From IMG/VR virus record IMGVR_UViG_3300040734_000024, positions 1 through 50,493 of that record: DNA of 50,493 nt. One strand, written 5' to 3'. This document shows positions 1,459 to 23,332 of the stretch, one piece after another (the stretch's first letter is position 1; every line of letters begins with the position of its first letter). The DNA is from a virus (lineage: Duplodnaviria > Caudoviricetes). The notes under the pieces are model-generated. The model saw nothing but the letters and a program-made list of their open reading frames with translations, did not search any database and was not told the DNA's origin. Position numbers and translations under genes: made by a program.

Positions 1459-1513
1459 TGATAATATCGTATCACTATTGACATTTGAAACGATATATGA
1501 TAATATATTGTCA
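1459..1513 (+). promoter_or_regulatory. Sigma70-type promoter (TTGACA 1478-1483, N17, TAATAT 1501-1506) with palindromic operators at 1459-1474 and 1498-1513
   Basis: TGATA-N6-TATCA and TGATA-N6-TGTCA inverted repeats flank or overlap the promoter of the sigma-factor gene. Confidence 0.6.
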
Positions 1514-1555: not shown

Positions 1556-2113
1556 ATGGAAAGCAGTATCACTACACTCGAAAGCAAGATCGAAAACCTA
1601 ACCCCCACGTTGAAGAAAATTGCAAACCGGTACGCCAACGGGAAAGTCGAAGCAGATGACCTGTTTCAACACATGGTCGAAAAGATTTTCCGTTCCTGCA
1701 AGGCAGAGGATACAAAATCCTACATCTGCCAATTGGCGACCTGGACTGCTCGGAACATGGTCAACGCTGAAAAGATTTACCTGCGGTACGTGACCACCGG
1801 CCCGGAACAGGACGACAGCGAAACCAAGGCCACTGACTTTATCGAAATGTTCTCGGATGCAGAAGCGGTATCACCGGAACAGCGGTTGGTCGAACTCGAA
1901 AGTGAAGCTGAAATGCGTTTGGTTCTGGCAAAGATTTACCCCAGCCTGGATGACACGAACAAGCAGATCGTTGTCATGCTCTCTGAGAACAAGACCCACC
2001 AGACCATCGCTGAATTTCTCGGGATCACACGGCAAGCGGTCACCAACCGGGTTCGTGACCTGCGGGGAATTTTCCAGCTTGCAGGCTTGACACCTGCGTT
2101 CATGTCAGCGTAA
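1556..2113 (+). CDS. Phage-encoded ECF-like sigma-70 family factor
   Basis: Region-2-like LKKIANRY...EADDLFQ and region-4 HTH HQTIAEFLGITRQAVTNRV; AGGAG RBS before ATG 1556. Confidence 0.8.
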   Translation: MESSITTLESKIENLTPTLKKIANRYANGKVEADDLFQHMVEKIFRSCKAEDTKSYICQLATWTARNMVNAEKIYLRYVTTGPEQDDSETKATDFIEMFSDAEAVSPEQRLVELESEAEMRLVLAKIYPSLDDTNKQIVVMLSENKTHQTIAEFLGITRQAVTNRVRDLRGIFQLAGLTPAFMSA

Positions 2114-2126
2114 AATAAGAAAGTTG

Positions 2127-2155
2127 CTCCCCTGGTTTTCCAGGGGAGTTTTTTT
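2127..2155 (+). terminator. Rho-independent terminator after the sigma gene
   Basis: CTCCCCTGG-TTTT-CCAGGGGAG followed by T7. Confidence 0.85.
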
Positions 2156-2184
2156 GTTATATGGGGGTTAGTGAAATTATTCAG

Positions 2185-2215
2185 GTGTCCGATTGTAATT
2201 ATTGTTTGTTTAATA
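2185..2215 (+). promoter_or_regulatory. Phage promoter-like motif, copy 1
   Basis: GTGTCC-N16-TGTTTAATA. Confidence 0.8.
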
Positions 2216-2243
2216 CCCATAGACCTGAATTGCGGAGGTAACT

Positions 2244-2423
2244 ATGGTTATGGTATCTCGTCCTGCTGGGGGAATATGTTTGAACGCCAGTATACGTGAA
2301 TACTTACTTGATTATGACGGAAACCCGAAGCGTTTTGCGACTGTGGACGCCGCAAAGCGATTTTTACGAGACATGGGGTTTTCGGATGATGACATGGTCG
2401 GGCTTGAATTTGAGCAAGAATGA
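2244..2423 (+). CDS. Small hypothetical protein (59 aa, not in the ORF track)
   Basis: GGAGG RBS, MVMVSRPAGG..., stop overlaps the MTase start (ATGA). Confidence 0.6.
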   Translation: MVMVSRPAGGICLNASIREYLLDYDGNPKRFATVDAAKRFLRDMGFSDDDMVGLEFEQE

Positions 2424-3592
2424 ATAAAACTATTTGCGCCATTGACCTTTTTTGCGGTGCTGGTGGAACATCGACCGGCTTAATAAAAGCTGCCGAAGCA
2501 CTTGGGTATTCAGTGAATCTAATTGCTATAAACCACTGGCAGGTAGCCATTGCTACTCATTCCCAAAACCATCCGAACGTACAACACCGGTGCGAGAGTT
2601 TAGATAATGTGGATCCCAGGAAAGCCGTACCTGGCGGTCATGTTGACCTGTTGGTAGCTTCCCCTGAATGCACCCACCACAGCCGCGCACGGGGCGGTAA
2701 GCCAATGAGCGACCAATCCAGGGCGTCCGCCTTCCACGTCCTGCGCTGGTGTGAAGCGCTGGACGTGAGCGATGTACTGCTGGAAAACGTACCGGAATTC
2801 ATGGACTGGGGGCCGTTATACAATGACTGCAACTGTGGTGCCGGCACCGATAAGGAAATGAAGTTGCACGACAAAAAATGCCACTGGAATAAACCTATCC
2901 CAAAAATGAAAGGGCGGGTTTACCGGTCGTTCTTAAGCTCGATGCGCGCCCTCGGGTATAAGGTTGAGGCACGCGTGATCAACACGGCGGACTATGGGGA
3001 TCCACAGACCCGTAAACGCCTGTTCATAATGGCGCGCAAGAATAAGAGAATTATCTGGCCTGAACCTACCTACAGTGAGAAAGGAGGGGCAGACCTATTC
3101 GGCGACCACCAGAAGTGGAAAGCCTCCCGCAGTATTATTGACTTTGGAATACCCAGCAAGTCAATTTACGGAAGGAAAAAGCCGCTGGCAAAGAATACGC
3201 TAAAGCGGATCGAAGCCGGATTGCGTAAGTACAGCGGCCTGCCTTTTGTTCTCGGGCAACAATCTTGCGCCTCCCCTCGAAGCGTGGACAATCCTTTACC
3301 TACCGTATCGGCCGCCGGGGCTATTTCTCTCGTTGAACCATTCCTGATAACAACTAATTGGGGAGAGACCAACCGTAGCCAACCGCGCTCTGTAGAAGAT
3401 CCCATGCCGACAATAACGGGTCAGAATTTTGTCGGCCTCGTCCAGCCGTTCATAGTCCAGATGGATTTAGGCGGTAGTTCTCATTCGGTTGACGAACCCA
3501 TGAACACACTTACCAGTGCGGACGCCAGGGGATTATTTGTCAATTTTATTCGAGGGGGATTTTTCACAGGACTCAGGCTTCCTGGGTGTTGA
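2420..3592 (+). CDS. DNA (cytosine-5) methyltransferase, apparently lacking C-terminal motifs IX-X
   Basis: DLFCGAGG, SPEC, LENV, QTRKRLF motifs; repeated TRD-like segments; no GNAV-type motif X seen. Confidence 0.85.
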   Translation: MNKTICAIDLFCGAGGTSTGLIKAAEALGYSVNLIAINHWQVAIATHSQNHPNVQHRCESLDNVDPRKAVPGGHVDLLVASPECTHHSRARGGKPMSDQSRASAFHVLRWCEALDVSDVLLENVPEFMDWGPLYNDCNCGAGTDKEMKLHDKKCHWNKPIPKMKGRVYRSFLSSMRALGYKVEARVINTADYGDPQTRKRLFIMARKNKRIIWPEPTYSEKGGADLFGDHQKWKASRSIIDFGIPSKSIYGRKKPLAKNTLKRIEAGLRKYSGLPFVLGQQSCASPRSVDNPLPTVSAAGAISLVEPFLITTNWGETNRSQPRSVEDPMPTITGQNFVGLVQPFIVQMDLGGSSHSVDEPMNTLTSADARGLFVNFIRGGFFTGLRLPGC

Positions 3593-3622
3593 TGTCAATA
3601 ATCATTTTCGGTTTGTTTAATA
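3592..3622 (+). promoter_or_regulatory. Phage promoter-like motif, copy 2 (with anti-SD hairpin 3579-3630)
   Basis: ATGTCA-N16-TGTTTAATA. Confidence 0.7.
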
Positions 3623-3636
3623 CCCAGGAGACCTTT

Positions 3637-3792
3637 ATGGACGAAAAAACGATCCTTTCACTGGCGAACTGGACACAACCTAAAGAGATAGTCACGAAAT
3701 ACGGCCCGCGGTATCTGCGGACTGCAAACGTGACAGAAGCATTTTCTTCCGCCTGTCGAGTCGTCAATAATGCGCTGAAAAAGATGCGGTAA
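3637..3792 (+). CDS. Short hypothetical protein, possibly a gene remnant
   Basis: AGGAG RBS, 51 aa. Confidence 0.45.
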   Translation: MDEKTILSLANWTQPKEIVTKYGPRYLRTANVTEAFSSACRVVNNALKKMR

Positions 3793-3798
3793 TCCAGC

Positions 3799-4674
3799 AT
3801 GGGGATTATCCGGGTATTTCCACGCAAGACATCTTACACGCCATCCGATGAATATGTGTTTGTTGGTGAACCTCCTTTGTTTCGTCCAGAAGCAGAGGAG
3901 GTTCATGTTTCCGTAACGTTCACATGGGATATTGATTACGGGAAACACCTTCTTTCCGCATGGTCAAAATACTACCCAAAGGTATTAATCGGAGGGCCGG
4001 CACTCGGAAATATAACCACCAACTTTCAACCAGGTCGATATGTAAAAACTGGAGTTACCTTTACCACGCGTGGTTGTGACAACAATTGCCCGTGGTGCCT
4101 GGTGCATAGCAAGGAGGGAAAACTCGTTGAGATAGCGGATTTTGCAGAAGGAAATATCATTCAAGACAATAATTTGCTCATGGCAAGCCGGACCCACATC
4201 GAAAAAGTATTTTCGATGCTAAGAATGCAAAAACGAGCGGCTATTTTTGCTGGTGGTCTTCAGGCGAGCCTGATAGATGATTGGTTTGTAGATCTTCTTA
4301 AGACGATCAGGCTTGACAGCTTGTTTTTGGCTGCTGATACCTACGGTGCTTTAATACCTCTTGAAAAAGCACTCAATAAGCTAGCGGGCTTTGAAAGGCG
4401 TAAATTACGTGTCTACTGCATGATTGGTATGAATGAAACAATGGATCAAGCCGAACAACGCCTAGAAGCTGTTTGGAAATTGGGGGGGCTGCCATTTGCA
4501 CAACTCTACCAACCGCCCGAAAAATTCATTGATTATTCGAGCGATTGGAAAGCTTTGGTGCGTAAATGGTCTCGTCCAGCAGCTATGTTCACGAGCCATA
4601 AGAATACCGGAGAGGATATCCGAAATGGATCAGGGAAAGAAGTGTCTTATCTGCCGGTACTTTGGAATAAATAA
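3799..4674 (+). CDS. Radical SAM protein
   Basis: TRGCDNNCPWC (CxxxCxxC), GGP and DNN motifs. Confidence 0.85.
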   Translation: MGIIRVFPRKTSYTPSDEYVFVGEPPLFRPEAEEVHVSVTFTWDIDYGKHLLSAWSKYYPKVLIGGPALGNITTNFQPGRYVKTGVTFTTRGCDNNCPWCLVHSKEGKLVEIADFAEGNIIQDNNLLMASRTHIEKVFSMLRMQKRAAIFAGGLQASLIDDWFVDLLKTIRLDSLFLAADTYGALIPLEKALNKLAGFERRKLRVYCMIGMNETMDQAEQRLEAVWKLGGLPFAQLYQPPEKFIDYSSDWKALVRKWSRPAAMFTSHKNTGEDIRNGSGKEVSYLPVLWNK

Positions 4675-4706
4675 GTATTTAGCCATAATACCTAATAAAT
4701 CAATCG

Positions 4707-4749
4707 GTGTCATCACCTCCTGTTAGTTTTTTTAATAACAGGAGGTGAT
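4707..4749 (+). promoter_or_regulatory. Phage promoter-like motif, copy 3, within a 14-bp anti-SD hairpin
   Basis: GTGTCA-N16-TTTTTAATA; ATCACCTCCTGTTA / TAACAGGAGGTGAT. Confidence 0.8.
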
Positions 4750-4750
4750 T

Positions 4751-5272
4751 ATGAATATTACACGAATTGATGTCGAACAAACTCCGGGCGGTCTGCTGGT
4801 GCGCGAATGGTTTGAAGGTTGGAACCAAGATGCTACGCCGCCTTGCGACCTTTCCCGAACGGTAAATAAGAACATTGGCTTGTTCATGCTCGACCTGCAG
4901 GACGCCGGTTACACATGCGAAATGGCAGACGGTACGCACGGACGGGCGCTGCGGGGTGAAATCACCCGGATCGACTTTTATAAACAAGCTGACGGTTGGC
5001 GTGTGCAAAAGTACCCGTATGGCTGGACAGCAAAAACCCGTCCTATCCAGGAAGCGGTTTTAGCTGACACAGCCGATGCGCTCCGGTGGTGTAAAGATAA
5101 TGGCTGGGTTGTCCGGGAATGGCCTGGTGGTGCACGAGCGTTCAAAGGGAAACCGTACCCAGTCCGGGACACAGCGGGGATCATGTCGATGCGCCGGAAG
5201 GCAGAAGCTGAGTATTTAGGCGGCCAGACCGGAACGAATAAAATCTTCTTTGATTTTGCTTTCGATTGGTAA
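4751..5272 (+). CDS. Hypothetical protein
   Basis: Strong AGGAGGT RBS, 173 aa. Confidence 0.7.
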   Translation: MNITRIDVEQTPGGLLVREWFEGWNQDATPPCDLSRTVNKNIGLFMLDLQDAGYTCEMADGTHGRALRGEITRIDFYKQADGWRVQKYPYGWTAKTRPIQEAVLADTADALRWCKDNGWVVREWPGGARAFKGKPYPVRDTAGIMSMRRKAEAEYLGGQTGTNKIFFDFAFDW

Positions 5273-5281
5273 CTCAAATCG

Positions 5282-5322
5282 GTGTCATAACCTCCAGCTA
5301 ATTTGTTTAATAGCTGGAGGTT
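5282..5322 (+). promoter_or_regulatory. Phage promoter-like motif, copy 4, within a 12-bp anti-SD hairpin
   Basis: GTGTCA-N16-TGTTTAATA; AACCTCCAGCTA / TAGCTGGAGGTT. Confidence 0.8.
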
Positions 5323-5327
5323 TTACT

Positions 5328-5501
5328 ATGAAAAACCTGACAACCAACTTAGAGGAAGCATACAAGGAACTGGATAATGTGGTTTTGAACGCTATCCGTT
5401 CCGATGCGCCAGAGAAAGCAATCCGCAAGATCGAAGCGTTGCAGAAAAGGATGACTTCGATGACCGTGGAGAAAGCAGAGGAAACCAGCAAGCAAAACTA
5501 A
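5328..5501 (+). CDS. Small hypothetical protein
   Basis: GGAGG RBS, 57 aa. Confidence 0.6.
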   Translation: MKNLTTNLEEAYKELDNVVLNAIRSDAPEKAIRKIEALQKRMTSMTVEKAEETSKQN

Positions 5502-5547
5502 TGACCAGGTTACTTGACCAATCGTATTCAACCTTTTTTACTTTGCT

Positions 5548-6294
5548 TTGGAGATGCAAAAAATGACTGAACAGAATTACGCTCTTGTAAGTTTATACCA
5601 CCCCACGGGTGCAAAAGTATCAATCCCCCTTTCGTTAGCTGAAACAATCACAAAAGGACAGGCTTCTTTTTTGGTCGAATCGGTCGATCAACTGGTCGCC
5701 GCCGGCTTCACCGTGAACCTTCCCGGTCTCATGGACGGCGAGAACTTTGAACAGATCGGATTCGCTGTCCGCCGTGAAAAAGTCAACGATGACGGTACGG
5801 TCACCCCGGTAATGGATGTTTACCCTGTGAACGGAAACTTCCGGCTGATCGGTATGTACCTGAACTCCCTTGAGAACATCAAGGCGTTTGAGACCGCTAC
5901 CGGACTGTGCGTCGAAAAAATGCTCTTGTGGGATGGAAGCACTATCGAGCGCGGTAAGAAGCCGGCCACGGACAAGTACGTTACTGCCCTGAAAGCCCCG
6001 GCTAAACTCGTCTGGAAATTCAACCCGAAATGGGAAGGCGACACAGACGACAAGCACCCCAAGCGGTTATTCGTCCGCTGGGAAGGTTTACGCCCGTTGA
6101 ACGGGAACGAAAGCGCACCAGAACCGGTTTCGATGACGGTTGAAGAAGCCGGAGCGGTCAAGACCCCAGGTGGTGCGGAAATCGGCACCCTTAGCCTGGA
6201 TAAACTGAAGACCCTCTCCGCTTCGACCGCAAGCAACGTGACCGATCAAATGCGGGAAGCTGCGAAGATTATCCTGAGCACCAAGACCGCCTAA
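5548..6294 (+). CDS. Hypothetical protein (next to SSB, possibly recombination related)
   Basis: Long ORF in the early operon; function inferred from position only. Confidence 0.7.
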   Translation: MEMQKMTEQNYALVSLYHPTGAKVSIPLSLAETITKGQASFLVESVDQLVAAGFTVNLPGLMDGENFEQIGFAVRREKVNDDGTVTPVMDVYPVNGNFRLIGMYLNSLENIKAFETATGLCVEKMLLWDGSTIERGKKPATDKYVTALKAPAKLVWKFNPKWEGDTDDKHPKRLFVRWEGLRPLNGNESAPEPVSMTVEEAGAVKTPGGAEIGTLSLDKLKTLSASTASNVTDQMREAAKIILSTKTA

Positions 6295-6356
6295 GCGGTG
6301 AAACCAGCAGAGCCGGTTTGGAATACCGGCTCTGCATTATTGATTGTGAGGTTTTT

Positions 6357-6785
6357 ATGCCGTTTCCACGAATGGACATCGAATTAGTAGGTAATGTCGG
6401 GAAAGCGCCTGAAATGCGCTATACGCCGGATGCGAAGCAGGTTGTGAAGCTGTCCCTCGGCGTGTCCCGCAAATGGAAAGCAGACGGCGGTGAACAGAAG
6501 CAGGAAACATCCTGGTTTACCGTCACCTGCTGGGGACAACTGGCTGAACAGGTGAACCGCCTTGCTGTTGGTCAACAGGTGCTTGTGAAAGGATACCTGA
6601 AACCTGATCCGACGACCGGCTGCCCGCGTATTTGGACCCGTGCGGACGGTACACCTGGTGCATCGTACGAACTGACTGCGACCGAGGTCTGGGTATCCCT
6701 GTTCGGGAAAGCATCTGGTAGCACCGCTGTGCAACCTGAAAGCGCCGAGTACGGTGATGAACCGCCCCCGGAGATCCCATTTTAG
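6357..6785 (+). CDS. ssb: Single-stranded DNA-binding protein
   Basis: LVGNVGKAPEMRYTP...ETSWFTVTCWGQLAE...acidic tail ending EIPF. Confidence 0.93.
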   Translation: MPFPRMDIELVGNVGKAPEMRYTPDAKQVVKLSLGVSRKWKADGGEQKQETSWFTVTCWGQLAEQVNRLAVGQQVLVKGYLKPDPTTGCPRIWTRADGTPGASYELTATEVWVSLFGKASGSTAVQPESAEYGDEPPPEIPF

Positions 6786-6798
6786 GGAGAGGTGAACC

Positions 6799-7068
6799 AT
6801 GCCAACTTTACCATCAGATCCCCAAAACCAGGAAGCCGGACAGATTACTGGACAAGTAACCGCCGGTAATTGTCAGGGCGTGAACATTCCAACCAGAGAA
6901 ATTCTGAACGATATGCGAGACGCAGTCGATGATCTTGAGAATGCGGATATCGCGTTGAATATCGGAGCTCTCACCTACGGTAAGGACAAGCACCCAACCA
7001 TCGAACGGTGGACAGAAAATCTGAACCAGATCGAGGCTATGATTTCCATCCTGCGTAAGCGCCACTAA
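6799..7068 (+). CDS. Hypothetical protein
   Basis: GAGGT RBS, 89 aa. Confidence 0.6.
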   Translation: MPTLPSDPQNQEAGQITGQVTAGNCQGVNIPTREILNDMRDAVDDLENADIALNIGALTYGKDKHPTIERWTENLNQIEAMISILRKRH

Positions 7069-7077
7069 TTTTCATTC

Positions 7078-7109
7078 AGGAGCGGTGAAAAAGCCGCTCC
7101 TTTTTTTTT
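7078..7109 (+). terminator. Rho-independent terminator
   Basis: AGGAGCGG...CCGCTCCT followed by a T run. Confidence 0.8.
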
Positions 7110-7119
7110 CGATCAATCG

Positions 7120-7150
7120 GTGTCCATCCGGACATCTTGTTTTTTTAATC
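7120..7150 (+). promoter_or_regulatory. Phage promoter-like motif, copy 5 (replication operon)
   Basis: GTGTCC-N16-TTTTTAATC directly after a terminator. Confidence 0.75.
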
Positions 7151-7166
7151 TTTGAGGAGTTTCTAC

Positions 7167-7385
7167 ATGTTAAATTTTTTTACCCATAAAACCAAAACTC
7201 ATAAAAACGTGAAAGCAAGCAACAGCGTCTACATGGGCGCTAAGGCCGGCATGGTATCTATTTTCTACCGGGGCGCTATTATCCCGTTGACCCCCGACCT
7301 GGCCGACCAGATCGCCGCCCACTTGCCGCGGTATGCGAACATTGCCCGGAATTTGGCGGAGAGTAATAAACCTGCGGAGGCGTAA
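7167..7385 (+). CDS. Hypothetical protein
   Basis: GAGGAG RBS. Confidence 0.6.
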   Translation: MLNFFTHKTKTHKNVKASNSVYMGAKAGMVSIFYRGAIIPLTPDLADQIAAHLPRYANIARNLAESNKPAEA

Positions 7386-7784
7386 ATGGCGCCCGCCAAA
7401 TATACCTCACCTGCATACTATGACAATTTGATCAGAACCATGCCGGCCGGGTTGGAGCGTGCTGTTGTCCAAATCCTGAAGAACCACATCGGGAAGGAAA
7501 ATGCGCTCCACCTTGACCAGTTGGCTATTTTCCTAATTGATCTAGGTTTTCACGCAGAAAAGCGCCAGATCAGGATCGCAATCAGGAACTTGCGCCGGGA
7601 ACAATGGCTTATCGGTGCGCTTCCTTCTGAAGGCTACTACATCATTTCCTCAAAAGCCGAGTTCAACGAATTTGTGGACAAAGAGTTCAAGCCAAAGATT
7701 ACTGACATGGCTGAAACTTTGCGAATTATGCGGAACTCGGCTAACGAGCGATTCGGAGAAGCAATACAGGGAGCATTGTTATGA
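7386..7784 (+). CDS. Winged-HTH-like DNA-binding protein
   Basis: HIGKENA...RQIRIAIRNLRR...GYYI pattern. Confidence 0.6.
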   Translation: MAPAKYTSPAYYDNLIRTMPAGLERAVVQILKNHIGKENALHLDQLAIFLIDLGFHAEKRQIRIAIRNLRREQWLIGALPSEGYYIISSKAEFNEFVDKEFKPKITDMAETLRIMRNSANERFGEAIQGALL

Positions 7785-8648
7785 GCGTAAAGGTTACGAC
7801 ACTTGTCTTCGATGCGGAAATGCAAGACTTACCATACACGAAGGACGGGGAGCAGCGCAACGCCAAAGCATCGACTGTAAAGCTGATAATGTTGGCCTAT
7901 GCAGACCATGCAAACGATGACGGTGAATCTGCATACCCAGGGTATTCAAGGCTCGAAGTAAAAACAGCTTTAAGCCGTCAGGGTATTGCGGATACTTTGG
8001 AAGCCATTACCCAAAACGGGCTAATGTCTCTTACCGGGGTAAGTAAGAGGCATACGAATAGTTACCAAATCAATATGACAAAACTTAGAGAACTAGTCAA
8101 GCCACTTGACCACCAGGTAGTCAAGCCACTTGACCAGCACGAGTCAAGCCACTGGACTAGAATCATCCATTAACCATCCATTAATTAATACGGAACGAGT
8201 AAAGAAAGTACTGTCTGCAAACCCGGTATGGTCAATGGTTGGTGACGTGGATTATGTCCCGTCTGAAGACGAGATCAGCCTGCAACACATTCGGCGCACA
8301 TGGGACACCCTCATGCGTACAAACACCCCCTGGGATCACTGGGGTACGTTCGATAAGTGGTTGCTGGAACAGGAACGGTCTGGCAAACCGGTTGCCACTT
8401 TCTGTAAATGGTTTATGAGCGATACTTTTCGGCGGTCATCTATCGGAAACTGGACCCCCACGGGAAAGAAGGGTCAGTGGTCGTTCAAGTACATTTACCC
8501 CCAGGCATTCCCAATATCTGACGAACAAGCGCCGCAAACCGATGTCGAGACACCGCTTGCACAGCGCATGAAAACCTGGAAGCCGTTGACGATAAAGGAC
8601 AGAAAGGTTGTCAAACCGGAACCGGCTGCCAATTCAGGTGGAATGTGA
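7781..8648 (+). pseudogene. Phage replication initiator (N-terminal HTH), split by a frameshift in its iteron repeats (ORFs 7781-8173 and 8130-8648)
   Basis: KLIMLAYADHANDDG..AYPGYSRL..KT.LSR N-terminus, internal iterons, immediately upstream of DnaB. Confidence 0.7.
8095..8157 (+). repeat. Three iteron-like palindromic repeats AGTCAAG-CCA-CTTGAC (putative ori)
   Basis: Copies at 8095, 8119 and 8142; spacing 24 and 23 bp; the third has one substitution. Confidence 0.85.
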
Positions 8649-10765: not shown

Positions 10766-10796
10766 GTGTCCAAAGTAAGCAGGTATTTGTTTAATA
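10766..10796 (+). promoter_or_regulatory. Phage promoter-like motif, copy 6 (heads the RNA operon)
   Basis: GTGTCC-N16-TGTTTAATA. Confidence 0.8.
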
Positions 10797-10800
10797 CTCA

Positions 10801-10812
10801 GAACCTTGAAAA
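10801..10812 (+). promoter_or_regulatory. boxA-like antitermination element
   Basis: GAACCTTGAAAA just after the promoter; resembles rRNA-operon boxA. Confidence 0.45.
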
Positions 10813-10819
10813 TGGAATA

Positions 10820-11105
10820 AGCAATAACTGGCAACCAGTAAGCCGAGTAGACGAGTGGAACGGTTCCTCCGATGGATGCTCGTAAAACGTAGAACCCTAT
10901 TCGCATGGTTCCCAGATGTTGTACCAGCTTGTAGTTGATCTCGGTCAAAGACAGCATGTCTAAACTACAAGCTGGTTGATAAGAAACACCGTGTACTGAA
11001 ACAAGATGCTTGAGCGCTGAGATGTTTGAGTGTTGAGGGGTGTTACCAGGGACGCATCCTGGGTGAGCCCATGATCCTACGGGAACCATAAGCACGGTGG
11101 AGCAT
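10820..11105 (+). ncRNA. Putative structured RNA with long-range pseudoknot
   Basis: Pairings 10905-10913/11081-11089, 10923-10936/10963-10976, 10987-10994/11092-11099. Confidence 0.5.
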
Positions 11106-11116
11106 GCGCAAAGATT

Positions 11117-11304
11117 TGGGCGGCGGTGTTAAAACGCGAGTTCCGGGTTCGCCGGGCTTATCGGGTGTGAACACACGCGGTAGGGACGCCCGCATGGGAC
11201 GGACAGCCGTCGTACCGAGGCATATATCTATGGACGCATAGACAAGCCCGCCAGACATTATTTCGGTGCATCCCATAAATCAGGTTCAAATCCTGACCGC
11301 CCAA
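11117..11304 (+). ncRNA. Enlarged tRNA-like RNA (188 nt)
   Basis: Acceptor TGGGCGG/CCGCCCA, T arm TCAGG-TTCAAAT-CCTGA, multi-hairpin interior. Confidence 0.6.
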
Positions 11305-11320
11305 CTTTTGTACGTTATTT

Positions 11321-11439
11321 GGGGAGATCGACTAATAGGCTAGGTCACTGGAACGAAATCTGGAAACTACTGTGAAGTACAAGCAGACTATCCAGAAAGT
11401 AAATTGCCAGAAAAGGACGTTCGAAGCGTTCACTCTCCA
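11321..11439 (+). ncRNA. tRNA-like RNA with extended anticodon arm and G3:U70 pair (119 nt)
   Basis: GGGGAGA/ACTCTCC acceptor, D arm GACT..GGTC, CTGG/CCAG stem with 55-nt insert, T arm GGACG-TTCGAAG-CGTTC. Confidence 0.6.
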
Positions 11440-11451
11440 CAAGACGTGGTT

Positions 11452-11523
11452 GACTTTGTCCGTTCAAACAAGTCTATAAAAATGGTAAGAACGGATAGCG
11501 TCACCTGCTTCAGTGGTGAGACC
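11452..11523 (+). ncRNA. Pseudoknot RNA with pistol-ribozyme-like topology
   Basis: P1 GACTT/AAGTC, loop TGTCCGTTC pairs with GAACGGATA, TATAAA linker, GCG then TCACC/GGTGA stem. Confidence 0.3.
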
Positions 11524-11588
11524 TCTGGCACATAGGCAGAGCGCGACCGCGCTGTAAAAGCGGCGAGCCGGTGGAATGCCGGCACCCC

Positions 11589-11660
11589 TGCGGGATAGAG
11601 AAGCGGTTATCTCGGCTGGCTCATAACCAGCGATCGGTAGTTCGAATCTACCTCCCGCAA
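11589..11660 (+). tRNA. tRNA-Met(CAT), initiator-like D arm and anticodon loop
   Basis: Full cloverleaf; TGCGGGA/TCCCGCA, GCTGG-CTCATAA-CCAGC, GGTAG-TTCGAAT-CTACC. Confidence 0.9.
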
Positions 11661-11667
11661 CAGAGAG

Positions 11668-11946
11668 CAGCAACTTGGGAAGGGTTGCTGAACACCAGGA
11701 TAAGAATTCCCAACCGAGCGGCGAGCCGCCTAGAAGTCGGTAAACAGTCAGGTCCCTGGACGTAGGAAAGACGCTAACTAAACCTAGCCTGATACGCTGC
11801 GGCGCAGGCAATCACCGGCTGTGCTCTTTGGGAAGGTGTAGAATGCACCACGTACCGGTACAGCCGGTGAACATGAAATCTAGCCCACGTTTACCGGTAT
11901 TGCTGTGGGCTTGATACCAGGGTGTCTCAATACCTCCCGCCCTGGC
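11668..11946 (+). ncRNA. Putative structured RNA between the two tRNAs
   Basis: Stems 11668-11675/11683-11690, 11812-11824/11858-11870, 11882-11888/11905-11911; pseudoknot 11675-11681/11707-11713. Confidence 0.5.
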
Positions 11947-11955
11947 ATGCAAGAA

Positions 11956-12027
11956 GCCGAAGTAGCTCAGTGGCAGAGCAATTGGTTTGTGATCAGTAGG
12001 TCGCTGGTTCGACCCCAGCCTTCGGCT
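11956..12027 (+). tRNA. tRNA-Thr(TGT)
   Basis: GCCGAAG/CTTCGGC acceptor, GCTC/GAGC D stem, loop TT-TGT-GA, T arm GCTGG-TTCGACC-CCAGC; weak anticodon stem. Confidence 0.85.
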
Positions 12028-12132
12028 TTAGACGGTGTAGTGACCGTCGAGTGACTTCTCCTACCCTTGAAGGGCGGTCTCTTGGCGAGGAGCGCCAGGA
12101 GACCGTAAGGGGGAGTTGTTTATCAGGAGACT

Positions 12133-12870
12133 ATGAAAAAAATACTCAGCATCAATGCCCTTTTATGGGTAATTTATATCGCATTACTGGCCGTCCTTTT
12201 TCCTCATACCGCATGGGCGTTCGGGCAATTTGAACCGTCCACCGGGCAGGTATGGGTATCATGGGCGGCCGCTTTGGCGTTTGAGGCCGCTATCGCCGCT
12301 CTTACCCACAAGCTGTCAAAGCACATTGAACAGACACCGAAACGGCTGTCTGCTGGAAAGAAATTCACCTATCGCTATCTAAACGCTTATTCGCTTGGGC
12401 TGGTAGCTGCATTAGGTCTATCTTCACTCGCTAACCTGGCGCATGCGGTCGAGTTCGGCCGCCAGATGGCGATATTCACCGAATGGAATATTCCGTTCGG
12501 TGTTTTTGCTATCTCGTTCGGAGCCATATTACCGCTCATTAGTTTGACCTTCGCTCGGGTTCTCTCGAATGTGGCAGAGACCGAATCGGATGACGACCCG
12601 GAGTTGATCCAGGCGAAGGAAACCATTGGCGACCTTCGCAAACAACTGAGGGAAGCGAACAAGGAAGTTGAGACAGCGAATAAGCGAGCCGATACAGCCG
12701 AAGGTAAGTTCGGTTCAATGGGGGACGTAGTAAATGGCTTGTTCGCTGAGGATAAGCAAAAGCGAATTGTTACCGTACATAACCAGTGGCCGGCACTCAC
12801 CGGATCGGCCATTGCGATCATCGCCGAAAGTTCGCCGGCGTACGTGTCAGAAATCCTGAGCAAGGAATAG
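12133..12870 (+). CDS. Multi-pass membrane protein with coiled coil and C-terminal HTH-like tail
   Basis: About four hydrophobic segments, then a heptad-rich region; AGGAG RBS. Confidence 0.75.
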   Translation: MKKILSINALLWVIYIALLAVLFPHTAWAFGQFEPSTGQVWVSWAAALAFEAAIAALTHKLSKHIEQTPKRLSAGKKFTYRYLNAYSLGLVAALGLSSLANLAHAVEFGRQMAIFTEWNIPFGVFAISFGAILPLISLTFARVLSNVAETESDDDPELIQAKETIGDLRKQLREANKEVETANKRADTAEGKFGSMGDVVNGLFAEDKQKRIVTVHNQWPALTGSAIAIIAESSPAYVSEILSKE

Positions 12871-12984
12871 AAATGTTCTTCGGAGAAACGAATTGTCTCA
12901 ACGCTACAAACCACGCACAATCCATTGCCAGGATTGCCGTAAGCAAACCATCGTTTACCACCCCTTGTCGGTCCGCTGTCCAGA

Positions 12985-13485
12985 GTGCCAGCAAAAGAGA
13001 AACAGGTCGGGTGGCTATGTATGGCGACATCTACAATTTGGAGGAATATTGTGAACCGCAAAGGGAAAACGGAAGATATACATCAAATCCCGGAAGGCCG
13101 CGGAATGGACGCCTTGATCGCAACGTCGGTGTTCGGATGGAGAATTGAAGGCCGGTTGACCGTACCTCCGCCCGGAGATCCGCGTATATCATGGTGCGCC
13201 ATGTGGGACGCAGAAGGCCGGCCTCACTGGATGCCGAATTATTCAACCGACCTGGTATCAGCTTTCGAGGTGGTGAAGCGCATTATGTACGGAACGCTTC
13301 GCAGTCAGCCGAAGTTTTCTTATAGCGAGAAGCAAGGCTGGTGCTGCGATTTTGAGCATGGAGCGAAGGCTTTCGCTCCCACTCTCGAATTAGCGATCTG
13401 CCGGGCAGCTTTGCTCGTTGTCAACGGGAATTTGGGAATGGTAATGGGGGTACTGGTTGTGGGCGGGAACGGAGGCGCTGAATGA
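12985..13485 (+). CDS. Phage ABA-sandwich (BC1872-like) domain protein
   Basis: GRGMDALIA..VFGW...PNYSTDLVSAFEVV...APTLELAICRAAL; start uncertain. Confidence 0.65.
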   Translation: MPAKEKQVGWLCMATSTIWRNIVNRKGKTEDIHQIPEGRGMDALIATSVFGWRIEGRLTVPPPGDPRISWCAMWDAEGRPHWMPNYSTDLVSAFEVVKRIMYGTLRSQPKFSYSEKQGWCCDFEHGAKAFAPTLELAICRAALLVVNGNLGMVMGVLVVGGNGGAE

Positions 13486-13727
13486 TACAGGTGCAAACAA
13501 CTATCGAGGCAAATGCGAATAACACCTCCGTTGCGGTGAACATTCTTTTGAGGGAAGATGCAAACCCCAGAGAGGCCAAACTGGCTAAGGCTATCTACAA
13601 TTTCACCACAAAGATATTGATCACCGCCGCTAAGAAAGCCGGGTTCGATAAAGTGATTGTTGTGGACGAGGATGTTGAAAAATTCGTGAAGGATCACCAC
13701 AACACACAGAATGAAGGCGCTGAATGA
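13482..13727 (+). CDS. Hypothetical protein
   Basis: GGAGG RBS, ATGA coupling. Confidence 0.6.
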   Translation: MIQVQTTIEANANNTSVAVNILLREDANPREAKLAKAIYNFTTKILITAAKKAGFDKVIVVDEDVEKFVKDHHNTQNEGAE

Positions 13728-14260
13728 GCGGACTGATTATTGATTACGTGGGCGATGACGGGAAAACCATCGGTAGTAAATGTTTAAGCTGTGGCGGTGA
13801 CATCGGACTGGATGAGACAATTCCCCACGTTTGCCCGAACCGCATTGAAAACCAGTACAACGCCCCCAGGTCACCGGAAGACGAACTCCGCTACCAGAAC
13901 CTGTTATCCCGTTCACACGATAACCTGGCTTCCTGGTGTTTGGCATGTGAGAAGAACAATAAAGAACTGGGGGAAATGGTTATTTCTGTAGAAAACCAGC
14001 TAAAGAAATCTCAAAAAGAAATTGCAGAGATTTCTATGCGAGTTGTGGAATTTGCCTGGCAGCTTCAAGTCTGGAAATTGGACTCAGCCGCCGACAATCT
14101 CATTCGAGAGATATTGGGTGATCGTGTGCATGCGCCTGATTATTTTGCGCTCGTTGCCAGCCTGCAAAGCAAAGAGGAAGAAATTCAGGAACTCAAGCAG
14201 GCTCTTGAAGAGAAAGCACAATCGGTTTTAAGGAAAGGAGAACATGGGACAAAATCTTGA
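13724..14260 (+). CDS. Hypothetical protein (Cys motif plus coiled coil)
   Basis: Translationally coupled ORF. Confidence 0.6.
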   Translation: MSGLIIDYVGDDGKTIGSKCLSCGGDIGLDETIPHVCPNRIENQYNAPRSPEDELRYQNLLSRSHDNLASWCLACEKNNKELGEMVISVENQLKKSQKEIAEISMRVVEFAWQLQVWKLDSAADNLIREILGDRVHAPDYFALVASLQSKEEEIQELKQALEEKAQSVLRKGEHGTKS

Positions 14261-14600
14261 TACGTGGGCTGTGCTCGAATTGTTCGGTCACCAGGAAATC
14301 GCAGGCATGGTAACCGAACATATTATCGGTGGTCAGGCGTTCGTCCGGGTTGATGTGCCCGCTGTGAACGGTAATCCCGAGTTTACCAAACTGTACAACG
14401 CCTCAGCTATTTATGGAATTACCCCGACCACCGAGGATATTGTCCGGGCGTTCTTATCCAGGAATGCGCCGGCACCGATCAAACTTTACCAACTGGACGT
14501 GAGCGCTTTATTGCCACCTGGTGCCGGTCCCGTAGGTGAGACGGAACAATTCAAGGACGATCCAGACTGCGAAGGACCGACCGAAGACCCTCCATTTTAG
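14244..14600 (+). CDS. Conserved phage hypothetical protein
   Basis: AAGGAG RBS; WAVLELFGH..IAG.VTE..IGG..FVRVDVP pattern. Confidence 0.7.
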   Translation: MGQNLDTWAVLELFGHQEIAGMVTEHIIGGQAFVRVDVPAVNGNPEFTKLYNASAIYGITPTTEDIVRAFLSRNAPAPIKLYQLDVSALLPPGAGPVGETEQFKDDPDCEGPTEDPPF

Positions 14601-14613
14601 CGAAAGGTATTCT

Positions 14614-14886
14614 ATGAGTGAAACTGTCAATAGTGCGGAATATTTTGCTGATACCGGATCAGAACTTGAAAGCCGTGACATCTCCGCTGAGTTATGGCGA
14701 GAGTACGATTTCGGCGGTCGTGTTTACCGGATCAATTCTCCATCATCCTTGTATACCCGCAAGGGTGGAACTACCCACAGGGTAGTTGATAAAGACGGGG
14801 TTGTCCATTGCGTACCGGCTCCAGGCGTAAACGGCTGTGTTTTACGTTGGAAAAACCTCGATCCAAAAAAACCAGTCACATTCTAA
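14614..14886 (+). CDS. Hypothetical protein
   Basis: AAGG RBS; WREYDF..RVYRI..P..L...GGTTHRVVD. Confidence 0.65.
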   Translation: MSETVNSAEYFADTGSELESRDISAELWREYDFGGRVYRINSPSSLYTRKGGTTHRVVDKDGVVHCVPAPGVNGCVLRWKNLDPKKPVTF

Positions 14887-14899
14887 CGAAAGGTAATCT

Positions 14900-15352
14900 A
14901 TGAACGATAAACCAGTTGAGAAGAAAGACCTTATCCAACAGCGGGAAGAACTTGAGAACCGGGTTGCAGCACTCGAAGGCGCCTTAAGCTCAATCCTCCT
15001 GCAAGCCACCACCTGCCGTATGCCGGTTTGCACACCTGCCGAGGTCGAGAACGCCCGCACCTTGCTCAAGGAAATGGCGATTGATCCGCAAGCATTCGCC
15101 TACACCCTCATGCGCGGAACCGTGTCTGCAATTGCGGATACCAGCCTCAAGGCTCAACGACCCGAAGTTCAGAAATGGATCCAAAACGCCAATGCGGTTC
15201 AGATTCCGATTAAAATTGTCTGCACTGCCTTGCGCTTAGCTGCCGGTGAACTTTCAACCCACGATCCATACACCAAAATGCACCCAGCCGAGGTTTACCA
15301 GAAATTGATCAATTCAGCATCAAACCCTGCTGTGTCAAAATCGGCAGACTGA
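14900..15352 (+). CDS. Hypothetical protein
   Basis: AAGGT RBS, 150 aa. Confidence 0.6.
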   Translation: MNDKPVEKKDLIQQREELENRVAALEGALSSILLQATTCRMPVCTPAEVENARTLLKEMAIDPQAFAYTLMRGTVSAIADTSLKAQRPEVQKWIQNANAVQIPIKIVCTALRLAAGELSTHDPYTKMHPAEVYQKLINSASNPAVSKSAD

Positions 15353-15368
15353 AAAGGAAGGTAAACAG

Positions 15369-16247
15369 GTTAGCGGTAATACCAAGATCGAATGGGCGAC
15401 CAAAGTCTGGAACCCGGTAACCGGATGCACGAAGGTCAGCGCAGGGTGCGCCAACTGCTACGCCGAACGGGTTGCGAAGCGCTTTTGGAAAGGGAGACCT
15501 TTCACCGATATTCGGTGCTTTGAAAACCGGTTGGATGACCCGCTTCATTGGAGCGACCCAGAACGTATTTTCGTAAACTCCATGAGCGACCTGTTCCACC
15601 CGGAGGTGCCGGACGGATTTATCTTCGCTATTTTCAAGCGAATGGAATATTGCAAACAGCATACCTTTCTGATCCTCACGAAGCGCCCCAGGCGGATGCA
15701 GGACTGGCTTTGGGAACACTGGTTCAAGGGCACATTCGGGGAAAGTCTACAAAAGCTTGTGCTTCCGAACGTGTGGTTAGGTGTAAGCGTTGAGAACCAG
15801 GAAGCCGCAAACGAGCGCATCCCGATCTTGATGAATACCCCGGCTGCCAAACACTTCATTTCCTGTGAACCGTTGCTTTCCGGGGTAGATCTCCTGAATG
15901 TGAAATACCATACCGATAGCGCATACAATTTGAATGTTCTCGGGATGCGGTACACAACAATTCCGATTGAAAATAACCAGGATGGAACGCCAATGGTTTT
16001 CGGTATGGCCGGCATGGCGAAAATCGACTGGGTTATCTGCGGAGGTGAATCCGGTCCGAACGCCCGCCCACTGAAACCGGAATGGGCTAAGCGCCTGCTG
16101 TACCAGTGCGAGAAAGCCGGAACCCCGTTCTTTTTCAAGCAGTGGGGCGAGTTCACCACTTCCGATGACGGGAAGGCGCTGCGTGTTGGTAAGCAGGTTG
16201 CTGGGCGCATGTTGAACGGGAAAGAGTATTCGCAATTCCCTGAATAA
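15369..16247 (+). CDS. Phage Gp37/Gp68 (DUF5131) radical-SAM-like protein; start codon non-canonical (GTT) or mutated
   Basis: In-frame upstream TKIEW..VWNPVTGCTKVSAGCANCYA; IFVNSMSDLFH, LTKRP, NVWLGVSVENQ, DWVICGGESG, FFFKQWG. Confidence 0.88.
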   Translation, partial: VSGNTKIEWATKVWNPVTGCTKVSAGCANCYAERVAKRFWKGRPFTDIRCFENRLDDPLHWSDPERIFVNSMSDLFHPEVPDGFIFAIFKRMEYCKQHTFLILTKRPRRMQDWLWEHWFKGTFGESLQKLVLPNVWLGVSVENQEAANERIPILMNTPAAKHFISCEPLLSGVDLLNVKYHTDSAYNLNVLGMRYTTIPIENNQDGTPMVFGMAGMAKIDWVICGGESGPNARPLKPEWAKRLLYQCEKAGTPFFFKQWGEFTTSDDGKALRVGKQVAGRMLNGKEYSQFPE

Positions 16248-16261
16248 CCTCCAATAATAAA

Positions 16262-16301
16262 GTGTCCAAACCTCCGGCTAGTTTGTTTAATAGCCGGAGG
16301 T
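16262..16301 (+). promoter_or_regulatory. Phage promoter-like motif, copy 7, within an 11-bp anti-SD hairpin
   Basis: GTGTCC-N16-TGTTTAATA; ACCTCCGGCTA / TAGCCGGAGGT. Confidence 0.8.
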
Positions 16302-16308
16302 ACTTATC

Positions 16309-16830
16309 ATGGTTCATGTTCGCACTCACGGATACCACCCGAAAATAGCGGCGATGAAAGAGGGAATGGAACTGCGCCGCAAAATCCAGGCTTACAAAGA
16401 GGAAATAAACCGCAAGCACATGCTGTATGTGCAATACTGGTTAGCTCGTGTCCAGTTATCCATCGGTTTGTTGCGAGACGTTGATCCTGATTTTCTTCTC
16501 TGGTATGACGACGACCGGAATATCCCAGATGACGCCACGAACAAAGAACTCACCCTGTTGATGGAAAACCGCCTATGTCAGTTCATACCGGATTACAAAC
16601 CGGCATGCGCAAAGCTGTATAAGGGAGTGTATATCTGGACAGATAGGTATCAGTATTCAAAATTCCCCGTGTGCATTTTCGACACGGAACGCAATATCCA
16701 TCCGTACTCAACCGTTCAGGAAGCTAAGCAGTTTATTGACCGCTTGACCGGTTGGGAAAACCTGAACGACTGGAAAATCGCTTACGGCGTTTTCATCTGC
16801 GATGACTCGCAAGATAAAAAATTAGGATAA
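16309..16830 (+). CDS. Hypothetical protein
   Basis: GGAGGT RBS, 173 aa. Confidence 0.65.
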   Translation: MVHVRTHGYHPKIAAMKEGMELRRKIQAYKEEINRKHMLYVQYWLARVQLSIGLLRDVDPDFLLWYDDDRNIPDDATNKELTLLMENRLCQFIPDYKPACAKLYKGVYIWTDRYQYSKFPVCIFDTERNIHPYSTVQEAKQFIDRLTGWENLNDWKIAYGVFICDDSQDKKLG

Positions 16831-16850
16831 AAAGGAGGTGATCCCACTCT

Positions 16851-16876
16851 AGCCCCTGGCAACCCAGGGGCTTTTT
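16851..16876 (+). terminator. Rho-independent terminator
   Basis: AGCCCCTGG-CAAC-CCAGGGGCT followed by TTTT. Confidence 0.75.
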
Positions 16877-16877
16877 G

Positions 16878-16908
16878 CTGTCCAAAGCAAGCGGGTATTT
16901 GTTTAATA
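16878..16908 (+). promoter_or_regulatory. Phage promoter-like motif, copy 8
   Basis: CTGTCC-N16-TGTTTAATA directly after a terminator. Confidence 0.75.
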
Positions 16909-16933
16909 CTCACACATTTTTACAGGAGTTTAT

Positions 16934-17749
16934 ATGACCCTCTCGAAGACTTTGAACTTTAGCACACCTGTATTGGAAGTTCTACGATCAATGTTATGGT
17001 CTGAGGACGGTACGCTCGGTTCCATCCCGGTTCAACTGGACAGAAACCTTTATACCGAAGTGAACAAAGCGCTGGCCGCAATGGGCGGACATTGGAACCG
17101 GTCTGCTGGGGCGCACGTGTTCACAGCCGATCCCCGCCCACTTGTTGACGGCCTTCTGGACACCGGTTCGCTGGTGGTGGAGCGTGATGGCTTCTATGAA
17201 ACCCCCAAAGTAGTTGTCGAAAAGATGTTGAGCGAATTACCTTTCCCTCGCACAGACGCATGTATCCTTGAACCCTCAGCCGGCAAGGGTGCAATCCTCG
17301 GGGTACTTTTAAGTCACCTATCTATTCACCCAGAGTTGAAACCCTACTCCTACAAATTCACCGCAATTGAGAAAAACGCTTCCCGACGGCAATACATTGC
17401 TGAAAACTTCAAACAGGTATCCGTCCTTGAAGTAGTCGATTTTCTCGAATACAACCTAGTCATCTATCCACCGTTTGATCGTATCTACATGAACCCTCCG
17501 TTCGAGGAAGGTCAGGACATAGACCATGTCCGCCACGCCTATGACCTGCTGAAGCCGTATACCGGAAAGCTGGCCGCCGTGATGTCTGAGGGCGTGTTCT
17601 TTCGCTCCGATAAGAAATCCGCATCTTTCAGGGAATGGCTGGCAGAGCATGACGGGTACAGCGTTTTCTTGCCTGGAAACTCGTTCAAAGAAAGCGGAAC
17701 CGGAGTGAACACCCGCCTTGTATTCGTGAACCGGTCCAACGTGGTTTAG
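16934..17749 (+). CDS. SAM-dependent amino-methyltransferase (probably DNA N6-adenine)
   Basis: FYETP, ILEPSAGKGA, MNPPF, FKESGTGVNT motifs. Confidence 0.88.
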   Translation: MTLSKTLNFSTPVLEVLRSMLWSEDGTLGSIPVQLDRNLYTEVNKALAAMGGHWNRSAGAHVFTADPRPLVDGLLDTGSLVVERDGFYETPKVVVEKMLSELPFPRTDACILEPSAGKGAILGVLLSHLSIHPELKPYSYKFTAIEKNASRRQYIAENFKQVSVLEVVDFLEYNLVIYPPFDRIYMNPPFEEGQDIDHVRHAYDLLKPYTGKLAAVMSEGVFFRSDKKSASFREWLAEHDGYSVFLPGNSFKESGTGVNTRLVFVNRSNVV

Positions 17750-17765
17750 GCGAACTGACCGCCCG

Positions 17766-17796
17766 GTGTCCAAAGCCGGGCGGTGTTTGTTTAATA
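17766..17796 (+). promoter_or_regulatory. Phage promoter-like motif, copy 9
   Basis: GTGTCC-N16-TGTTTAATA; the -35 sits in the loop of ACCGCCCGG/CCGGGCGGT. Confidence 0.8.
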
Positions 17797-17812
17797 CTGA
17801 GGAGAAATTAAC

Positions 17813-18217
17813 ATGCCAGAACCTACTAATCTTGAAAAACTCGAAGAGCTTTACTATCACCGCACGCTGATCGCTTCCTCTAAAAAGCAGGCGCAGGACG
17901 CCGTGATCCCGCTTGATGTCGCCCAGGAACTCGAAGCGATTGACTACGAGTTCGGCCAGAAGGAAGAAGCCCTGGCGAAGAAAATCCAAGAGCTCGAAGA
18001 AGCATGAAAACTGGAAGCTATCGCTGCCGGCCAGACCATCCAGTCGGAGCATTTCCAGGTAATCTACACCCGGCCTTCATACGCCGTGAGCAGCAAGGAT
18101 GTTATCGCTCTGGCGAACCGGTGGGAGAAGACCAACCCGGAAGTATCGAAAGAGATTATGAGCATCCTTACCCTTTCAAAACCAAAGACCAGCATCCAGC
18201 CCCGGAAGACAGCATGA
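17813..18217 (+). pseudogene. Hypothetical phage protein interrupted by an in-frame TGA (18005-18007)
   Basis: The frame stays open for 69 more codons (KLEAIAAGQT...QPRKTA) to a stop coupled (ATGA) to the next gene. Confidence 0.6.
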
Positions 18218-21442: not shown

Positions 21443-21460
21443 TAGTAGAAAAGAGGATAA

Positions 21461-23273: not shown

Positions 23274-23332
23274 CGTTAATAACGCTGGTTCTTATTCACA
23301 GATAGGGTCACAAATGAGGAGAGAGGTAATTG

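Follow-up and report, generated by a model that had tools for sequence, protein, structure and literature searches.

In phage lambda, the lysis-lysogeny switch is formed by the divergent cI and cro promoters with operators between them, the repressor mRNA is leaderless, and N provides antitermination. In the defective prophage PBSX, the Xpf factor is encoded at the end of an Xre-repressed early operon and fires the late promoter. A possible further parallel is the temperate Streptomyces phage phiC31, with repeated private early promoters between terminators. Here, a switch of related logic is described in a 50,493-nucleotide stretch of viral DNA (Caudoviricetes; positions 1 to 50,493 of IMG/VR record IMGVR_UViG_3300040734_000024), which as a whole is called the window. 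It contains nine copies of a two-box motif (motif A) and two sigma factor genes, sigma1 (1556–2113, + strand) and sigma2 (9965–10765, + strand). Judged from its distribution and sequence context, motif A is very probably a private phage promoter, and sigma1, which resembles extracytoplasmic function (ECF) sigma factors, is probably its reader.

Repressor-gated sigma factors on temperate elements are already in print (SigN, Xpf), so that this design is a variant rather than a new principle. The nearest known system in logic appears to be SigN (ZpdN) of the B. subtilis plasmid pBS32. In the available part of its description (PMC6751061), SigN is a weakly ECF-like factor of a prophage-bearing element that is expressed from a repressor-blocked promoter of the primary-sigma type, is repressed by host LexA, activates itself, and controls replication and nucleotide genes largely without virion genes. 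The sigma1 promoter, like that of SigN, is of the primary-sigma type, and palindromes that are candidate operators overlap it. In contrast to SigN, however, the repression would come from a protein encoded by the phage itself, sigma1 has no motif copy in front of it, and the regulon includes another sigma factor. A tblastn search of 72,556 plasmid records, among which the presence of pBS32 was not confirmed, yielded nothing for sigma1. The accessible portions of two reports portray Xpf (Pcf) as a group IV positive control factor (PMC10141391) with domains sigma2 and sigma4 only that is required for PBSX induction (PMC10141391, PMC9836290). In contrast to Xpf, sigma1 is the first gene of its unit, and its candidate sites occur nine times, in front of middle genes. 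Two-sigma cascades are likewise known: the consulted parts of the SPO1 literature (10.1101/2021.11.12.468384, PMC3594737) assign middle genes to one phage sigma factor and late genes to another (gp28 and gp34). As in that cascade, two phage sigma genes are present, and the unit that contains sigma2 starts with a motif copy and has a terminator upstream, an arrangement read from the sequences of all five phages compared here (the window and the relatives G001, G420, G431 and G406). SPO1 is a large lytic phage without a repressor gate, whereas the window has an integrase and attachment (att) repeats, and its sigma1 has no match in the phage records searched. The lytic phage phiEco32 encodes gp36, a distant phage sigma factor that, as far as the accessible text of PMC12276001 goes, uses its own consensus at middle and late genes and needs gp79; that consensus is a single box, whereas motif A has two and belongs to a temperate phage.

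The sequence-only reading had given the motif as GTGTCM-N16-TKTTTAATA. Its nine starts, all on the + strand and with one spacer length, were confirmed. Six copies match that pattern exactly, whereas those at 3592, 7120 and 16878 each carry one mismatch, and the downstream box is in fact longer, a 12-nt element (RTTTKTTTAATA), because the last three spacer bases are fixed as well. Motif A is thus GTGTCM-N13-RTTTKTTTAATA, mostly with a G directly before and AAA directly after the first box. SPO1 gp28 promoters share a TTTnTTT −10 box with it. The six exact matches to the shorter pattern compare with none in 100 shuffled sequences, and a scan of both strands with the refined motif, allowing up to three mismatches and spacers of 12–14 nt, returned the same nine sites only. 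In an unbiased count of word pairs between 1500 and 24700, motif A ranked first with seven copies, against top counts of 3, 3 and 4 in three shuffles.

All nine copies lie at gene boundaries. Copy 1 (2185–2215) is exact, with a predicted transcription start (+1) at 2219. Copy 2 (3592–3622; one mismatch; predicted +1 at 3626; counterpart at 2398 in G001) overlaps a stop codon. Copies 3 (4707–4737) and 4 (5282–5312) are exact. Copy 5 (7120–7150; one mismatch) follows an intrinsic terminator (7078–7109, +) and heads a unit of replication genes, DnaB and sigma2. Copy 6 (10766–10796; exact; counterpart at 12328 in G001) begins 1 nt after the sigma2 stop codon and stands at the head of 1.3 kb of non-coding DNA that includes two tRNA genes. 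Copy 7 (16262–16292) is exact, with a counterpart at 15603 in G001, and copy 8 (16878–16908; one mismatch) directly follows a terminator (16851–16877, +). Copy 9 (17766–17796) is embedded in a terminator-like hairpin (17758–17796, +), in which the upstream box forms the loop and the T-rich box the tail; the G001 copy at 18220 has the same form. The claim that three copies stand behind intrinsic terminators holds, with stems ending 36, 19 and 6 nt upstream of 2185, 7120 and 16878. The motif had also been taken to mark the whole middle regulon; it covers 2185–17800, but no further copy occurs among the + strand genes from 17813 to 24538. The late half of the window has no copy.

Motif A is rare in host genomes. 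While the 50-kb window holds nine copies, one-mismatch matches in five host genomes number 2, against 2 for the control. A relaxed form gave 22 exact matches in 20 of 401 host-family genomes, at most two in each, against 14 for the reversed control; the counter-sign named with the earlier reading, a motif common at host promoters, was thus not seen. The 16 stretches surrounding host-genome matches show neither similarity to phage proteins nor clustering, and no copy was found in 122 att-flank loci. A metagenome scan returned seven loci, all with single copies and taken as chance; one precedes an RpoD-like gene in a bacterial context.

The region upstream of the motif-led genes has the layout of a lysogeny switch. 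A 79-amino acid Cro/C1-type helix-turn-helix (HTH) repressor gene without a peptidase domain (1199–1438, − strand; Pfam HTH_26, E 1e-16; orthologues 55% identical in G001 and 39% in G420) is preceded, 6 nt before its start codon, by a host-type extended −10 element (TGn-TATAAT; 1445–1454, −), and its mRNA is predicted to be leaderless. The G001 counterpart has TATAAT 7 nt before the repressor ATG, and ATGCTATAAT occurs 82 times in five host genomes against 24 for the control. The host sigma70-type promoter that had been reported for sigma1, TTGACA-N17-TAATAT with a TG, is present at 1478–1506 (+), and a TTGACA with a −10-like box is also found upstream of sigma1 in G001, G420 and G406. The reported operator-like palindromes resolve into two related 16-bp elements: candidate operator O2 (TGAYAATATNNTRTCA, 1459–1474), with a counterpart at 1147 in G001, and candidate operator O1 (1498–1513), which covers the −10 box and start of the sigma1 promoter and is palindromic at 14 of 16 positions in the window and at 16 of 16 in G001. 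As in lambda, the repressor is divergent, candidate operators lie between two promoters, and the repressor mRNA is predicted to be leaderless, likenesses seen at the sequence level only; unlike in lambda, sigma1 replaces cro as the first gene, and the repressor is an HTH-only protein without a self-cleaving domain. The placement of sigma1 where Cro would be, noted earlier for the window, holds in G001, G420 and G431 as well, and in G406 sigma1 directly faces repressor-like genes. A GC-rich hairpin in the sigma1 leader (1516–1533) is near-identical in G001, and hairpins are found at this place in G420 and G406.

Both phage sigma genes match sigma70-family models, as had been proposed. The 185-amino acid sigma1 scores 51.6 bits against the sigma70-ECF model TIGR02937 (cut-off 42.9). 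Its Pfam matches to region 2 (residues 13–55) and region 4 (130–166) both fall under their cut-offs, and region 3 is absent, so that by these model matches it has the sigma2-plus-sigma4-only composition of a group-4 factor. Its structure model (predicted local distance difference test score 88.6) shows two helical domains with ECF sigma factors as best fold matches. The terminator reported to close the sigma1 unit lies at 2126–2157 (+; −19.9 kcal/mol, stem and U-tract). No motif A copy is found upstream of sigma1 in the window, G001, G420 or G431, so autoregulation, an older hallmark of ECF factors, is not seen. A co-transcribed anti-sigma gene is likewise missing from the window and G420, where a terminator directly follows the sigma1 stop; according to the portion of PMC8103513 available, this older ECF hallmark has since been dropped from the definition. 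Close relatives of sigma1 are few (four among 5.8 billion proteins). A tblastn search of 50,697 phage records returned nothing for it; as a single query it had no match in viral contigs, where the sigma1 alignment found G001 only, and the alignment found none in genome and metagenome contigs.

Further phages with this layout were found by two routes. When viral contigs were scanned with the motif, 36 loci on 34 contigs were returned; several exact copies together with a sigma2 relative are present in G001 only. Its layout is the same as that of the window, with sigma1 52% and sigma2 47% identical, and its five copies, all on the + strand (2398, 6533, 12328, 15603 and 18220), stand at matching genes or places. 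A weak sixth copy at 8461, behind a terminator, corresponds to window copy 5. Between the two phages, the boxes are conserved and the spacers changed. A profile of the wider sigma1 family pointed to 13 places in Anaerolineales-group genomes; four genome searches matched 7 of 401, 5 of 401, 2 of 301 (both already known) and 0 of 401 genomes, and members were likely missed because only 8–11 candidates per genome were scored. G420, G431 and G406 are clear prophage regions with repressor-like genes, sigma1, sigma2 and a repeat variant of their own: G420 has GTTWCCCAAAA-N9-RTTTKTTAAAT five times, with copy one immediately downstream of the terminator of sigma1, G431 has twelve copies of GCTTAACTTT-N10-AAAGTTT, and a 5-kb stretch of G406 has two copies of a form like that of G431. 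Both the G431 and the G406 variant read AAC...GTT. In unbiased word-pair counts, the motif of G431 ranked first, as did that of the window, with 8 copies against 3–4 in shuffles; those of G001 (5 against 3–4) and G420 (4 against 3) also ranked first, but by small margins. The end of a terminator lies no more than 60 nt upstream of the copy in 3 of 9 cases in the window, 3 of 5 in G001, 4 of 5 in G420 and 8 of 12 in G431. The proposal of a phage-specific promoter is supported by the absence of the motif from hosts, the preserved boxes with changed spacers in G001, and the placement behind terminators in four phages. Three further promoter-gene-terminator cassettes with the G431 motif lie at G431:C4 ~125500–127800 (L206), beside the integrase and opposite the late genes. 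A more distant and ambiguous element in G019 (G019:C1 ~2280900–2295100, L188–L189) has two ECF-like sigma genes and an RpoD-like one; its TTGACAA-N14-GGCTTTT repeat, present eight times, is a candidate further private promoter. Profile-matched places in G042, G130, G305, G426, G463 and G633 bore no resemblance to window proteins and were set aside as non-phage.

The position of the transcription start can be predicted from these alignments. In all 14 window and G001 copies, base 11 after the G of the last GTT is a purine, and 12 of them have a pyrimidine before it. In ten copies this purine is the first base of the Shine-Dalgarno (SD) sequence, and the other four are all CA. All five G420 copies have a pyrimidine-purine step at this position; in G431 the step comes one base later, in 11 of 12 copies, and never involves an SD base. 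The +1 is thus predicted at motif start +34, 4 nt after the RTTTKTTTAATA box, which leaves the whole SD in all coding leaders; a register of +30, counted from the first GTT, is a possible alternative. This prediction replaces the earlier expectation of a start 5–8 nt after the box, which would cut into the SD of 6 of 9 copies.

Copies 3, 4 and 7 (4707, 5282 and 16262) have spacers that are reverse-complementary to the downstream SD region. The resulting hairpins are strong (−22.3, −20.9 and −21.0 kcal/mol; z-scores of −6.1, −5.1 and −4.4, respectively), whereas RNA beginning at the predicted +1 of these copies folds no better than shuffled sequences. In the accessible part of PMC3014915, long transcripts of the T4 genes e, soc, 49 and I-TevI sequester the SD in a hairpin, whereas short RNA from a promoter within the hairpin region can be translated; unlike those leaders, the three hairpins here belong to middle genes and are not conserved in G001. 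An RNA fold shared by motif A copies was rejected, with only 3 of 14 copies having z-scores below −4.

Taken together, these features suggest the following course of events. In the lysogen, repressor bound to the two palindromes would keep the sigma1 promoter, which is of host type, silent. On induction, this promoter would yield sigma1 alone, because the terminator seen at 2126–2157 closes its unit. Host RNA polymerase would then read the nine motif A copies only when carrying sigma1, starting 4 nt past each RTTTKTTTAATA box and restarting behind each terminator, so that terminators would be bypassed by restart and not, as in lambda, by N antitermination. In this way, sigma1 would activate the genes for methylase, recombination, replication, tRNAs and sigma2. 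At the three hairpin copies, the computed folds would leave RNA from the local promoter free for translation and read-through RNA untranslated, because in the latter the spacer pairs with the SD. Sigma2, more tentatively, is a candidate late factor that perhaps reads ACGCTATAAT.

The assignment of motif A to sigma1, earlier drawn from position, is still indirect, but position is now joined by promoter form and by the gene organisation of five phages. In all five, a strong terminator separates sigma1 from sigma2, a motif copy heads the sigma2 unit, and the host-type promoter is on sigma1 only. Moreover, motif A keeps no TANNNT −10 element; in the available text of PMC8103513, primary sigma factors need A−11 and T−7, whereas ECF factors read boxes of the AAC/CGT type, and the lack of a conserved A−11/T−7 pair thus favours sigma1, as do the AAC...GTT boxes of the G431 and G406 variants and the ECF-like fold of sigma1. 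AAC is absent from motif A, and CGT is present in 5 of 5 G001 copies and 1 of 9 window copies. Assignment by recognition-helix residues or by trees was rejected as non-discriminating.

Several observations weigh against this assignment, and both the promoter activity of motif A and its reader are predictions. The window's upstream box, GGTGTCM, lacks the ECF-type AAC, and the fold matches of sigma1 have low template-modelling scores (0.3–0.4). Co-variation cannot pick the reader, because all clear-motif phages have both sigma genes and both trees group the window, G001 and G420. Although G406 has the motif of G431, the sigma1 proteins of the two phages show only 27% identity and have different recognition helices. 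The SD hairpins are found in none of the five G001 copies. One of the eight G019 repeats stands in front of both ECF genes, and TTGACA is the upstream box of these repeats. A distant and ambiguous element in G086 has a sigma2-like gene upstream with its own host-type promoter and two motif-like repeats that do not exceed shuffles, and no motif was found in two G174 elements with a sigma1-like gene, which are GC-rich and one of them partly masked, so that its word count was discarded.

That sigma2 reads the copies is unlikely. Terminator leak would then yield a little sigma2, which would amplify itself, and sigma1 would have another role. A sigma2 gene does accompany every clear motif, a copy directly follows the sigma2 stop in the window, G001, G420 and G431, and G406 and G431, with the same motif, both have RVQxIE in the sigma2 helix. 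In all five phages, however, sigma2 lies behind one or two strong terminators, and its RpoD-like region 2.3 aromatics fit the TATAAT-type motif B, described below, better. Using TAATA as its −10 would also place the +1 inside the SD in 6 of 9 copies, and sigma1, the sole product of the switch, would be left without a target. Reading by a host sigma factor is quite unlikely, whether by a host ECF factor that would couple the phage to stress or by the primary sigma factor with a phage activator, as with T4 MotA. The resemblance of the G431/G406 variant to the general ECF promoter form and the TTGACA of the G019 repeats speak for it, but motif A is at chance level in the 401 host-family genomes, its host matches lie in surroundings that are neither phage-like nor clustered, no A−11/T−7 pair is kept, and the motif differs between phages of related hosts. 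It is very improbable that the copies are repressor stop sites, RNA processing or antitermination sites, or cassette recombination points: all do share one orientation, four overlap strong hairpins, and in one related-strain contig (depth 2.2) the gene between 3791 and 4701 is missing and the sequence resumes immediately before copy 3, but the two boxes enclose a fixed-length spacer of free sequence, there is neither a common fold (as above) nor an Rfam match at the gathering score, many copies stand just behind terminators, where RNA exists only if started there, and separate palindromes already flank the repressor.

With sigma1 as the probable reader of motif A, sigma2 is left to be placed. 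It is a 266-amino acid RpoD/RpoS-like factor with regions 2, 3 and 4 (Pfam regions 2 and 4, weak region 3) that retains the RpoD-like aromatics of region 2.3. SigB, RpoS and SigA are its best relatives among solved structures, tblastn against the 50,697 phage records gave matches of 26–30% identity, and a sigma2-seeded scan of viral contigs gave a single weak match (37%). A candidate target is motif B (ACGCTATAAT): four of the seven TATAAT words in the window are preceded by ACGC, and all four are on the late strand. One copy (47297–47306, −) lies 9 nt before the likely small-terminase start at 47287 (Terminase_2), one (44846–44855, −) precedes a membrane-protein gene and one (40044–40053, −) the scaffold/capsid genes, the latter two being followed by a terminator; the fourth (24708–24717, −) lies after the last late gene and points into the end of the + strand block. 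G001, which is without the terminase end, keeps the scaffold copy. ACGCTATAAT was found post hoc as the top late-strand 10-mer, with 4 occurrences against 3 in five shuffles, and occurs 14 times in five host genomes against 28 for the control.

That sigma2 reads ACGCTATAAT has a little less than an even chance; the sequence suits it because its RpoD-like aromatics are kept. The G431 site matching motif B is host-type. Behind two motif B copies stand a conserved GAGGCA element and a terminator, a pattern that antitermination from a promoter read by the host would explain as well. The idea that GAGGCA serves sigma2 as an upstream box was discarded, as no common second box was found, and Rfam gave only sub-threshold matches near motif B. 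The same succession of TATAAT, a 25–40-nt leader, GAGGCA and a strong terminator before the next gene is seen at 40053–39895 (−), 44855–44757 (−), L040 19545–19713 and L205 17560–17690. This arrangement, common to the window, G001 and G431, resembles the lambda pR'/tR' attenuator, without a known antiterminator. A small hairpin with the loop TGCGGNNAAA (39905–39935, −) lies just before the scaffold gene, shows compensatory stem changes in G431, and is a possible translational control site. At the middle/late junction (24570–24717), two TATAAT boxes face each other, each antisense into the other block.

The sigma1-promoter pair had been suggested to be an undescribed orthogonal pair. It matched nothing in the collections searched, but the repressor-gated design as such is already published. 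No description of this system was found in the literature covered on Anaerolineae prophage sigma factors, temperate-phage middle promoters and phage-encoded sigma factors, and the papers searched contained nothing on phage gene control in the host phylum. Because most older subscription papers lay outside that literature, the system may have been described before. As a speculative and rather doubtful extension, a family of Anaerolineales temperate phages may have replaced Cro, N and Q by a two-step relay, from a repressor-gated ECF-like sigma factor through terminator-bounded middle cassettes and an RpoD-like sigma factor to ACGC-TATAAT late promoters, with orthogonal sigma1-promoter codes in each lineage (GGTGTCM, GTTWCCC and GCTTAAC). 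The analysis provides base-level predictions for a lysis-lysogeny switch without Cro, which can be tested with sigma1 and a 40-bp promoter without the uncultured host. At least three diverged sigma-promoter codes on one scaffold bear on how group-4 sigma specificity changes and on orthogonal expression parts. The surprise is limited, because repressor-gated sigma factors and two-sigma cascades are known designs.

The window is a prophage. Its ends carry 55-nt att repeats, the 3' part of a tRNA gene (1–55, +, and 50436–50490; 98% identity), and it contains a tyrosine integrase gene (49408–50325, +; Pfam Phage_integrase, E 1.5e-32), a terminase and head genes. The host is likely a filamentous Anaerolineales bacterium, because the att site matches tRNA loci of Anaerolineae/Chloroflexota records: an att pattern search matched 122 loci, the 80 listed being all titled Anaerolineae or other Chloroflexota, with an exact att core in 56 of the 122.

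A 97-amino acid gene beside att (200–493, +) has no Pfam or PHROG match, is kept in G001 (68%), G420 (54%) and G431 (28%), and is a candidate antirepressor or excision factor. The non-coding stretch after copy 6 (10800–12130) holds tRNA-Met, tRNA-Thr and a tRNA-like remnant near 11270–11305 and no other Rfam family at the gathering score; G420 has a similar stretch after sigma2. Three 22-nt direct repeats within the replication gene (8094–8162), with a fourth in one related contig, are likely origin iterons. Finally, the middle block includes genes for a cytosine methylase (2420–3592), an adenine-methylase-like protein (16934–17749) and a phosphoadenosine phosphosulfate (PAPS)-reductase-like protein (23330–24538), which possibly form a DNA-modification set.

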